Below, piece by piece: positions 2,046 through 16,888 of a stretch of 19,259 nt of DNA (the stretch's first letter is position 1; the number at the start of each line of letters is the position of its first letter). The notes below the pieces were generated by a model. That model was not told the origin of the DNA. It saw only the letters and a program-made list of their open reading frames with translations, and did not search any database. A program made the translations under genes and the position numbers. Source of the stretch: Thermoproteaceae archaeon (GTDB lineage Archaea > Thermoproteota > Thermoprotei > Thermoproteales > Thermoproteaceae). The stretch is taken from the NCBI GenBank assembly GCA_020833025.1, contig JAJHRB010000025.1, positions 1-19,259 on the forward strand. Reading direction: 5' to 3'.

Positions 2046-3902
2046 TTACCACGCGGCGAATATCCGCTTTACCTCCTCCCACGGGATGGGGGAGCCCTTA
2101 CCCTCCTCCAGCACTCTGGACGGCCCGGGGAGCGCCGCGGCGATCTCGTCCGCGCTGCAGCCCTCCCACCTCCCCGCCAGCTCCCTGGCCAGCCTCCCCC
2201 TCTCCACGTTGCCGGGGGCGAGCACGACGTAGCGCTCGGCGAGGAGCGGGGCAGACTGGGGCGGCGCGGCGACCACTCTGCAAACGCCGCCGTCTCTTCT
2301 GCAGCCGACCGCCAGCTCCACTCTCACGCCCCTGACGTACTCTCTCTTGCCGTACACCATGAACGAGCCCCTCGCCAGGTACTGCCCGGCCGGGGCCTGC
2401 TTCGACACCTGCTCCCCGCGGGCGTAGAACACGTCAATTGCGTGCAGCCCCATCCTCCACGCCCTGCTGTAGGCTGCGGCGAACTGCGCGGCTTGCAATA
2501 TCTCCAGCGGGTCGTCAATCGGCGGCGAGACGACGACGGACGCCCCCGGTATGTCTGCGTGGAAGAACAGATAGTGATCCTTCAGGTACCTCCTTACGAC
2601 CACCTCGTTCTGGGACGCGTCCCTCCCGCCTATCACGGGCCTCCTGCCTGCGGTTACGGTCCAGTGGAACTTCTCGAACCAGCTCCTCTCCGCGACAGCC
2701 CTGACAGCGTCTCTCACCCTCTTCTTGATGCGCTCTATCTCCGCGCTTAGCGACTCGAGCTCTTCTTCCAGCCTCTTCAGGGCCTGCTCGGCCCTCGCGG
2801 CCTTCCCCTCTAGCTCCCTCGCCCTATTGAACATCTCGGAGATCTGCCTGCCGAGCGGCACGTCGCGCCTGATCTCTACTTGCTCGCCGCCGGGGAGCTT
2901 TATCTTGATAGACTTGCCGTATACGTGTACGACACGTACACTTGCCTCCGAGCCTCCGAGCGCTTCCTCGATCTCACTTTTGTACATCAGGAGCTTGTGA
3001 GCCGTCGACTTCAGGCGCCCTGCCTCTCCCCTGAGCTCAGGAATTCTCTCCCTGAGCTCCGCAATCGTTGCCTCGAGCCTCTTGCGCCTCTGCTCTGCAT
3101 CCTGAGAGCTCCGCGCTGCCGCGAGCTCTAGCTCGAGGGGCCCGAAATAAAAGTCGAGCGCGGCCCAGAAGTGCTCGAACTGCCTCACCTCGTCGCACTG
3201 CAGGTGAGCGGGCCTTATTGGCATCACGGTCACGGGCACTCCCTCCTTAGTGCAGACGGAGGGCTCAAGCGCGCCCGACCTCACCCTGTCGACGATTGCC
3301 TTGAGCTCCTCGGCGATTGCCCCCGGGGACGCGCCCGCACGCGCCACTAGCTCCTCTGCCAGGTCGGGCCCCGTCCCGAGCCGCCGGACTAAGCTCCTCT
3401 TCAGGTCGCCCGGGTCTATCGCCCTCTCTATCTCGCTGATCTCCGCGCTCAGCAGATCCACGAAGGCCGCGGGGGGGTGCGCGTAGGGCACGCCGGGCCT
3501 CAGCTCCCTGCCCCTCCCCCTGTAGCTGTGCAGTAGCCACACTACTCTGCCCTCCCGCACAGCAATCACGTTGAACGGCTCCACGAGCTCGACCACGAGC
3601 CTCCCGGAGTAGAGTTCGAACTCGACAACGCGGTCAAATCTCGGCATTGAAACTCTCACTAGCCTCGCTCCCCTGAATAGCCCTCTGAGAGTCTCGGCGC
3701 CCCTGTGGGTCCTCTCCGGGACGATGCCGGTCAGCGACACCCTGAACTTCGTTACCGCCACGAGCCCGGAGGAGAGCTTGAGGAGGAGCCCCGCGCCGCT
3801 TCTATACACGTTCTCGACGCGGCTGCCTTGAAGTCCCGACATTTCCGCCACTGACGCCAGGAGGTCGAGAGGGGAGAGCACTCTCTTAGTCCTCAGGGAC
3901 AT
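2046..3902 (-). CDS. rqcH: NFACT/FbpA-family ribosome quality control protein (RqcH/Rqc2 homologue)
   Basis: N-terminal RFDRVVEF...LVVELV, HhH-like LGTGPDLAEE and a central coiled coil. NFACT-R motifs WFEKFHW, GGRDASQNE, FFHADIPGAS, QVSKQAPAGQYLARGSFMVYGKREY. Confidence 0.92.
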   Translation of the reverse strand: MSLRTKRVLSPLDLLASVAEMSGLQGSRVENVYRSGAGLLLKLSSGLVAVTKFRVSLTGIVPERTHRGAETLRGLFRGARLVRVSMPRFDRVVEFELYSGRLVVELVEPFNVIAVREGRVVWLLHSYRGRGRELRPGVPYAHPPAAFVDLLSAEISEIERAIDPGDLKRSLVRRLGTGPDLAEELVARAGASPGAIAEELKAIVDRVRSGALEPSVCTKEGVPVTVMPIRPAHLQCDEVRQFEHFWAALDFYFGPLELELAAARSSQDAEQRRKRLEATIAELRERIPELRGEAGRLKSTAHKLLMYKSEIEEALGGSEASVRVVHVYGKSIKIKLPGGEQVEIRRDVPLGRQISEMFNRARELEGKAARAEQALKRLEEELESLSAEIERIKKRVRDAVRAVAERSWFEKFHWTVTAGRRPVIGGRDASQNEVVVRRYLKDHYLFFHADIPGASVVVSPPIDDPLEILQAAQFAAAYSRAWRMGLHAIDVFYARGEQVSKQAPAGQYLARGSFMVYGKREYVRGVRVELAVGCRRDGGVCRVVAAPPQSAPLLAERYVVLAPGNVERGRLARELAGRWEGCSADEIAAALPGPSRVLEEGKGSPIPWEEVKRIFAAW

Positions 3903-3908
3903 CTGGCT

Positions 3909-3962
3909 AGTCAGCCCGTCCGTCGCAAATCACGGGCTCATCCACCAACGCTGTCATCACTC
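3909..3962 (-). ncRNA. Box C/D methylation-guide sRNA (sRNA-A)
   Basis: Minus strand: C GTGATGA (3960-3954), guide CAGCGTTGGTGG (12 nt), D' ATGA (3941-3938), GCCC, C' GTGATTT (3933-3927), guide GCGACGGACGGG (12 nt), D CTGA (3914-3911). It fills the gap between two CDSs. Confidence 0.85.
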
Positions 3963-4758
3963 ACTCGCGCTTCCAGCTGAGCAGTATGCCTATGTTGCTC
4001 GTCAGCTTTATCTTCATCTTGCTCCGCTCCAGGAGCTGCGGGAGCCCGGCCCTCGGCGGCGGCCCGCCGTAGTAGAAGTATATGTAGCCGATGTCCTCCG
4101 GATTCACGCCGAGGGCGCTGGCAGTCGCGGCGTCAATCTCGGCGCAGTTGTCCCCTACGACAGTCACGCCCCAGTAGCGCTGGAAGCCCTTGATCGGCCC
4201 GTCCCCTTCGATCACAAACTTCCCGTCGACAAGGCACAGGGTATTCCTCTCGAGCTTGTATATGTCCGCTATGAGCTTGTACAGCGCTCTGAGGCCCTCG
4301 TAGAGGCTCTGCACGTCCTTCGGCATGAGCACGTGGAGCGCGGCGGTGGGCATTGTTAGATACAGTATTATCTGCGGGTGGCTCACCGGAATCGCCACGA
4401 CGATCTTGGTCAGCGACTCGTCAAACGCGGCCTCCAGCGCCCTCACCGCGATTTTCGCGCCTGCGGGCGTCTCTAGCTCCAGCTTGTAGTTAGCCTGCTG
4501 GTAGGGCCTGATTATCCTGGCGCCGTACCTCGCGGCGAGCTTCTCGAGCCCCGTTATCTTCAGTGCCTTCTCGAAGTACGCCTTTGGCATTGAGAACGTT
4601 ATCGACACGTCCCTCCCTTGAAGGCTGCGGAGAATAGGCTCGAGGAACTCGAGCCGCGGGTTAGCCTGCGAGGGTATGTAGCTGTGGACTGCCAGCACCA
4701 CGAGGGCGTCCCTCCTCGGTATTGGCAGCTCGGCATCTGCGGGATAGGCCTCTATCAT
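3961..4758 (-). CDS. DUF362-like protein (divergent)
   Basis: The C-terminal pattern LVDGKFVIEGDGPIKG...VVGDNCAEIDAATASALGVNPEDIGYI matches the DUF362 C-terminal half. ATG 4758 is preferred to GTG 4761 because it lies 21 nt from the TAAA element at 4783-4780. Confidence 0.7.
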   Translation of the reverse strand: MIEAYPADAELPIPRRDALVVLAVHSYIPSQANPRLEFLEPILRSLQGRDVSITFSMPKAYFEKALKITGLEKLAARYGARIIRPYQQANYKLELETPAGAKIAVRALEAAFDESLTKIVVAIPVSHPQIILYLTMPTAALHVLMPKDVQSLYEGLRALYKLIADIYKLERNTLCLVDGKFVIEGDGPIKGFQRYWGVTVVGDNCAEIDAATASALGVNPEDIGYIYFYYGGPPPRAGLPQLLERSKMKIKLTSNIGILLSWKRE

Positions 4759-4849
4759 CACGCGACAGCGCAGTGCGGCTTTACAACCTTATCGCCGCCC
4801 GGCCGCGCTGGCTCTGCAGCACGAGCACAGCCCCGGCGCTCCCGGAGCC

Positions 4850-7064: not shown

Positions 7065-7085
7065 TTTCGCGCCGCGCTGAAAGGC

Positions 7086-7520
7086 ATGGCGAAGCGAGGT
7101 GGCAAGAGAGTTGTGGGAGTGTCTTACAGGTTTCACATAACGCCGGGCATCTTTGCGAACAGCCTAGTGCCTGTCGCTGACAACTCCGGGGCCAAGCTAG
7201 TGCGCGTTATAGGCGTTGCGGGTCACTACGCGAAGACCGTGCACAGGAGAATTCCTGGCGCCGCCGTCGGCGACATGGTCGTCGTTACTGTCAGGGAGGG
7301 CAAGCCGGAGCTGAGGAAACAGATATTCAGGGCTGTCGTGATCAGGCAGCGAAGGCCGTACAGGAGACCGGACGGCACGTGGATCGCATTTGAGGACAAC
7401 GCGGTTGTTCTCGTCACGCCGGAGGGCGACCCGAAGGGCTCTGAAATTCACGGGCCCGTTGCGCTGGAGGCCGCGCTGCGCTGGCCGCCGATTGCCAACA
7501 TAGCGTCAATAATTGTTTAG
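7086..7520 (+). CDS. rpl14: 50S ribosomal protein uL14
   Basis: [53 protein letters not shown]. Confidence 0.97.
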
Positions 7521-16517: not shown

Positions 16518-16888
16518 GGTGTTAAGTGTACATTGAGCATCACCGGCGGTCTCATCCTGTGTTTGATCACTCGCCCGCCCTCCGCGCGTGAATGAGCTCC
16601 TCTGCGAGGCACCTCGGCGCCCTGCCGTTGTTGTCCCCCGCCCGCTCCGAAGCTCACTTTCTGAGCCCCTCCTGCGTTTTGAGCGGCGCGGTGATTTAGG
16701 ATTGAGGTGGAACGCCCCCCAGCCTTGTGTTGTGCAACCCCGCGGCAGGGAGCCCTCTCATTGGAGCCCGCCGGGCATCTCCGGGCCCCCACCCGCGCGT
16801 CCCGCGGCCGCGCATAAATACATTCTCCCGGCCGGCACGAATCTTACTCTGGTATTCCGCCGGGGGGTTTTAGCGCGGCGCGGAGGGC

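Follow-up and report, generated by a model that had tools for sequence, protein, structure and literature searches.

Positions 3960 to 3911 on the minus strand of the DNA analysed here (the window, 19,259 nucleotides from a Thermoproteaceae archaeon) are occupied by the gene of a box C/D sRNA, which is a member of the published Pyrobaculum/Thermoproteus family sR25 and whose D guide pairs with the decoding site of 16S rRNA, leaving an A opposite the equivalent of E. coli C1402 at the N+5 position. Both the RNA and its mismatch are already known; since the feature is in the literature, the preliminary description of this DNA, made from raw sequence, correctly rediscovered it. According to the published reading, which we consider probable, the sR25 RNP binds 16S rRNA with both of its guides, the D' arm methylating its target and the D arm binding without methylating.

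The elements of the gene and the two genes that flank it are as follows.

3911..3960, minus strand: box C/D sRNA gene of the sR25 family from C box to D box, 50 nt, with orthologues, its guides shared with PCAsR25 and TtesR135
3954..3960, minus strand: C box GUGAUGA, adjoining the stop codon of the DUF362 gene
3942..3953, minus strand: D' guide CAGCGUUGGUGG, 12 nt, pairing with 16S UCACCAACGC
3938..3941, minus strand: variant D' box AUGA, read from the sequence and the orthologue alignment
3934..3937, minus strand: loop GCCC between the D' and C' boxes, 4 nt
3927..3933, minus strand: variant C' box GUGAUUU, read from the sequence and the orthologue alignment
3915..3926, minus strand: D guide GCGACGGACGGG, 12 nt, positions 2-4 and 6-12 of which pair with 16S 1399-1401 and 1403-1409 (E. 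coli numbering)
3919, minus strand: N+5 nucleotide of the D guide, an A that faces the 16S C1402 equivalent (Pae C1368)
3911..3914, minus strand: D box CUGA, ending 8 nt short of the ATG (3902) that opens the NFACT gene
3961..4761, minus strand: DUF362-family gene (Pfam PF04015), the conserved upstream neighbour of sR25
2046..3902, minus strand: NFACT/RqcH-like gene (Pfam PF05670 and PF05833), downstream of the sRNA

On the plus strand, TCAG at 3911-3914 is the reverse complement of box D, and CCCGTCCGTCGC at 3915-3926 that of the D guide; the coordinates first assigned to the feature (3911-3926) therefore proved, when the sequence was re-read, to cover exactly these two elements. Read from 3960 to 3911, the gene displays an RUGAUGA-type C box near its 5' end and CUGA at its 3' end, and its internal variant D' and C' boxes, two 12-nt spacers and 4-nt loop correspond to the layout of archaeal C/D sRNAs. 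At the gathering threshold no Rfam family matched the locus, and Rfam contains no sR25 model. A relaxed search returned only sub-threshold Pyrococcus sR20 (12.3 bits) and sR36 (10.9 bits) there; these matches, together with one to an unrelated lncRNA, were rejected as noise level. Weak C/D-like Rfam matches to snoR79, sR52 and sR43 (E of 1.5 or worse) were also seen at 3974-4030 on the minus strand, inside the 3' end of the DUF362 gene, and are probably noise because their spacer lengths are unlike those of a C/D sRNA. Elsewhere in the window, positions 16731-16794 of the minus strand match PyrR207, a Pyrobaculum H/ACA-like sRNA, above the Rfam threshold (64.7 bits, E 2.5e-11).

Membership in the sR25 family is evident from the D core CGACGGACGG and the D' core GCGUUGGUG, which are identical to those of PCAsR25 and TtesR135. 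In the supplement of Dennis et al. 2015, PCAsR25 is placed at position 1654863 of P. calidifontis and is identical in sequence to one of the orthologous loci collected here (L020, at G017:1654864), and TtesR135, i.e. sR135 of T. tenax, matches another (L028). RNA-seq yielded 35,958 reads for TtesR135 and 7 for the P. calidifontis sR25, and the targets of both RNAs are given as '16S C1389* / 16S C1349', the asterisk indicating that the target site is mismatched (Dennis et al. 2015, PMC4644070). As A1395 in that numbering is A1408 of E. coli, C1389 is C1402. Moreover, four Pyrobaculum families with a conserved N+5 mismatch have been reported, including sR25:C1368 in 16S, and such mismatches were taken to mean that contact with the rRNA is of benefit while the modification itself is dispensable or does harm (Lui et al. 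2018, PMC6009581).

With 16S ACCGCCCGUCGC (E. coli 1398-1409) the D guide forms pairs at ten of its 12 positions, the two exceptions being, just as described beforehand, position 1, which adjoins box D, and position 5, the A at N+5. The guide thus places A opposite C where methylation competence calls for a Watson-Crick pair. Because the genome of the window, a MAG of 126 contigs, lacks the 3' end of 16S (the gene is cut off by the end of its contig at about model position 828) as well as 23S, the target was deduced from relatives. Among the rRNA sequences of four complete genomes from the same genus, the best match of the D guide is 16S ACCGCCCGTCGC, the sequence given in the preliminary description. 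This 12-nt site does not vary among the 25 relatives that have an assembled 16S 3' end, and its 23-nt context is identical or near-identical in each of them. The target C, which we take to be the equivalent of E. coli C1402 by way of the 1392-1406 universal-primer numbering, lies at position 2081 of the 16S gene in G005 and G012; since this gene carries a 713-nt intron, the residue is number 1368 in Pae numbering and matches sR25:C1368. The only 16S piece of the MAG (contig C81:3215-4265, cut at the contig end) is without this intron, which in G005 and G012 follows about position 384, and has about 60 nt there instead. A further candidate 16S fragment, CCCGCCCGTCGC on contig C1 with one mismatch, was rejected, as it falls in coding sequence.

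BLAST and pattern searches found orthologues at 33 loci in two genera, with 22 distinct sequences among them; those that come from genome contig records belong to records titled Pyrobaculum, Thermoproteus, or uncultured Thermoproteaceae/Thermoproteales. Position 5 of the D guide is A in all 22, and positions 2-10 are invariant, the search patterns having fixed positions 2-4 and 6-10 and left position 5 free, with 20 BLAST-derived loci unconstrained. Positions 1 and 12 show all four bases, and position 11 a single C-to-U change that keeps a G-U pair. Conservation of the A, with no G in any orthologue, is what had been named beforehand as the sign of a selected mismatch. A nearest-neighbour estimate for the D-guide duplex with its A-C mismatch amounts to -20.5 kcal/mol at 37 C, as compared with -27.7 kcal/mol for a hypothetical G version and -17.4 kcal/mol for the D' guide duplex. 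Since the bare duplex is still predicted at -20.5 kcal/mol, binding of the D guide appears plausible despite the mismatch.

The D' guide CAGCGUUGGUGG pairs with 16S UCACCAACGC, 40 nt upstream of the D target, by nine Watson-Crick pairs and one G-U pair. Its core GCGUUGGU is invariant among the orthologues, and at N+5 it forms a G-C pair with Pae C1328 (C1349 in the alignment of Dennis et al., about E. coli 1362), as is proper for a methylating guide. Together with the conservation among orthologues, the in-register guides of other lineages described below and the two published analyses, this nearby canonical target supports the earlier proposal of a selected mismatch on the decoding site.

If any base other than G blocks methylation, the strict conservation of A needs an extra argument, e.g. 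that A-C is the least destabilising mismatch; retention of A, not of any non-G base, fits A-C as the least disruptive one, but it could instead hint at an A+-C pairing that permits some methylation. As far as can be read from sequence, the guide is compatible with a binding-only chaperone or blocker as well as with a tolerated A-C pair. The latter alternative, in which e.g. a protonated A+-C wobble in the RNP at high temperature would let sR25 guide 2'-O-methylation of the C1402 equivalent, at least in part, we hold to be unlikely. It would account for an A that is kept strictly rather than as anything but G, and it agrees with the methylation of this site by RsmI in bacteria and its targeting by guides in eukaryotes, as well as with the G-type guides of sister lineages. 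In addition, the window's own genome contains no homologue of either bacterial enzyme over threshold: RsmH was not found, and RsmI gave a sub-threshold match only, which is probably another tetrapyrrole-type methylase. On the other hand, a Watson-Crick pair at N+5 is held to be essential according to the in vivo and in vitro work cited by Lui et al. 2018 (PMC6009581), and both prior analyses (Dennis et al. 2015; Lui et al. 2018) treat the site as unmodified. A literature search for a modification map of Pyrobaculum 16S found none. Two published entries were set aside as evidence, namely an archaeal 'Cm1369' aligned to E. coli Cm1402 in a review table, the organism of which is not traceable, and C1369 of S. 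solfataricus, which is reported as m5C without a stated E. coli equivalent.

Guides that address the C1402 equivalent in the same register with G at N+5, and in clear C/D context, are present in other families of the Thermoproteota: in the D position in f11, f23 and f55, and in the D' position in f18 (where the pattern occurs in 13 of 17 genomes), f59 and f64. The G-type D' guides of f18, f59 and f64 would predict Cm at the C1402 equivalent in those lineages; in six loci of these families (L175-L178, L180 and L181) the G-type D' guide is followed by CUGA and then by a UGAUGA C' box. The A-type guide extends beyond Thermoproteaceae to one sister-family genome (G025 of f2), as part of an sR25-like RNA whose D box is AUGA, and to three genomes of family f6, where its partner is a different D' guide (core AUUCCUU) that presumably matches 16S around E. 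coli 905-915; 16S is unassembled in the MAGs of f6, f11 and f13. A-type pattern matches in f22 and f40 as well as G-type matches at L152, L156, L171, L173 and L174 were treated as chance because they are without C boxes. A simple scan of the window's own genome for a second, G-type in-register guide returned many loose matches, none in a convincing C/D context.

Judged from these sequences, the pattern suggests a lineage-specific switch between G and A at N+5 on a widely targeted site. A more specific scenario, to which we give somewhat less than even credence, is that Thermoproteales (Pyrobaculum, Thermoproteus and at least one f2 genome) and f6 turned an ancestral Cm1402-type guide into a binding-only one by a single G-to-A change at N+5, which would have been kept by purifying selection with A as the mildest mismatch, other Thermoproteota (f11, f18, f23, f55 and others) keeping the G. 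If this is true, these organisms lack, by selection, a ribose methyl on the P-site cytidine that is installed by bacteria, by eukaryotes and by their own relatives.

Taken by itself, the match of the D guide to the decoding site is at chance level. When guides were shuffled and scored against 16S and 23S of G012 (Watson-Crick pair 2, G-U 1, mismatch -2, as in Lui et al.), 1001 of 2000 shuffled D guides and 662 of 2000 shuffled D' guides reached an equal or better local match, and both guides matched within 100 nt of each other in 109 of 2000 shuffles. Since the single match of the D guide is at chance level, the case rests on conservation and on the D' guide; supporting facts beyond the single match are the D' target, the conservation among orthologues, the lack of another conserved target and the in-register G-type guides. 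The shuffling result, as well as the 28% of Pyrobaculum guides that are orphans (Lui et al. 2018, PMC6009581), would be in keeping with a D guide that is itself an orphan, directed to a different target with U at N+5 and matching the decoding site incidentally. We deem this very improbable: a search of five complete relatives for the perfect-complement 10-mer CCGTCCGTCG returned the sRNA gene and, in two of the genomes, non-conserved singletons, but nothing else, and a different true target reading CCCGUCCGUCGC, as considered in the preliminary description, is thus unsupported. Neither was another perfect 12-mer match of the D guide found in its own genome, nor any tRNA with at least 11 pairs to it (long 'tRNAs' proposed by ARAGORN with introns allowed were discarded as spurious). 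In addition, the block of the guide that is conserved is the one complementary to 16S, the D' guide targets 16S only 40 nt away, and the G-type guides of other lineages share both site and register.

With regard to its genomic setting, the sRNA follows immediately upon the DUF362 gene, whose stop codon TGA occupies 3963-3961, so that the C box begins straight after it. In each of the 19 orthologous loci tested, the sRNA is immediately preceded by a DUF362 homologue (61-77% amino acid identity), as expected of positional orthologues of sR25. The NFACT/RqcH gene gave no tblastn match in the same 19 loci and is not a conserved neighbour; accordingly, the suggestion to look for orthologues upstream of rqcH chose the wrong anchor, the constant neighbour being the upstream DUF362 gene.

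A rearrangement breakpoint is located directly after sR25 (window 3903-3911 and 7083-7520). The DNA that follows sR25 in G012 and G016 corresponds to window positions 7083-7520 in opposite orientation, and only in the window's genome does the NFACT/RqcH gene adjoin sR25. The same genome (G000) carries a second, decayed copy of sR25 on another contig (C34:12009-12245, locus L038), whose C box (GCGATGA) and C' box (GTGGTCG) are degenerate and whose D guide, GCGATAGACGGG, differs by two substitutions from that of the copy in the window. This copy is preceded by a 3' fragment of DUF362 of about 190 nt and followed by a region syntenic with G015, apparently Pyrobaculum sp. WP30 (79.7% identity over 1.8 kb); it has the appearance of a duplicated junction at a rearrangement bounded by an sRNA, the alternative being mis-binning of a second strain. 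That the window's genome has no functional sRNA here at all, the locus being a chance box-like sequence or a decaying copy, might be argued from the missing above-threshold Rfam match and from the decayed second copy, but can practically be dismissed in view of four boxes, spacer lengths and two guides that are all intact and match expressed orthologues, of the conserved DUF362 synteny, and of Rfam simply being without a model for the family.

In the published reading of a D' arm that methylates and a D arm that binds, sR25, lying in the 3' tail of the DUF362 gene, would probably be processed from the DUF362 transcript and, as an RNP with L7Ae, Nop5 and fibrillarin, could use both guides to dock on 16S rRNA while the latter is still nascent. 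The D' guide would form a canonical duplex on the loop region of helix 43, from which 2'-O-methylation of Pae C1328 is expected. The D guide, on the other arm, would pair with E. coli positions 1399-1409, which cover the decoding site and the beginning of helix 44, the conserved A being set opposite the C1402 equivalent; as Watson-Crick pairing at N+5 is required for methylation, binding alone is the most likely outcome for this arm. It may serve as a second anchor or as a folding chaperone that holds the future base strand of helix 44 during 30S assembly. While the sequences themselves show the anatomy, the complementarity, the conservation of the A and of its target, and the family membership, the chaperone role and the unmethylated state of the C1402 equivalent are inferred.

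Since the analysis mainly confirms published predictions, its value lies in the correct annotation of a previously unannotated MAG sRNA. Modest additions are the DUF362 anchor and the occurrence of in-register G-type guides elsewhere, as opposed to A-type guides in Thermoproteaceae, one sister-family genome and one further family. The mismatch sits on the one ribose methylation of the small subunit that is common to bacteria and eukaryotes. As related archaea appear to keep a methylation-competent guide, sR25 provides a natural case in which guide binding uncoupled from modification can be tested cleanly.

Among known systems, Pyrobaculum sR25 and T. tenax sR135 share with the RNA described here the box layout, the guide cores, the predicted targets, the A-C mismatch at N+5 and the DUF362 neighbour, whereas the present locus is a new species-level copy in a MAG that has NFACT/RqcH downstream and is accompanied by a decayed further copy on a different contig. 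Pyrobaculum sR33 (D' guide to 23S C2045, with a C:U mismatch), sR116 and sR56 likewise combine a conserved non-Watson-Crick N+5 position with a canonical second guide and have also been interpreted as interacting without methylation (Lui et al. 2018); they differ in their rRNA sites and mismatch types, and sR25 alone is directed to the universally conserved P-site cytidine. In eukaryotes, AtU43 guides Cm1645 of Arabidopsis 18S rRNA, which equals Cm1639 in yeast and Cm1703 in human (PMC11542601). Such U43-type snoRNAs and the archaeal G-type guides of f11, f18, f23 and f55 all pair with the decoding-site strand and set N+5 on the C1402 equivalent, and both are methylation-competent because they have G at N+5, where sR25 has A; the likeness is one of site and register and does not imply homology. 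Bacterial RsmI and RsmH, which produce m4Cm1402, act on the same universally conserved cytidine but are stand-alone protein enzymes.
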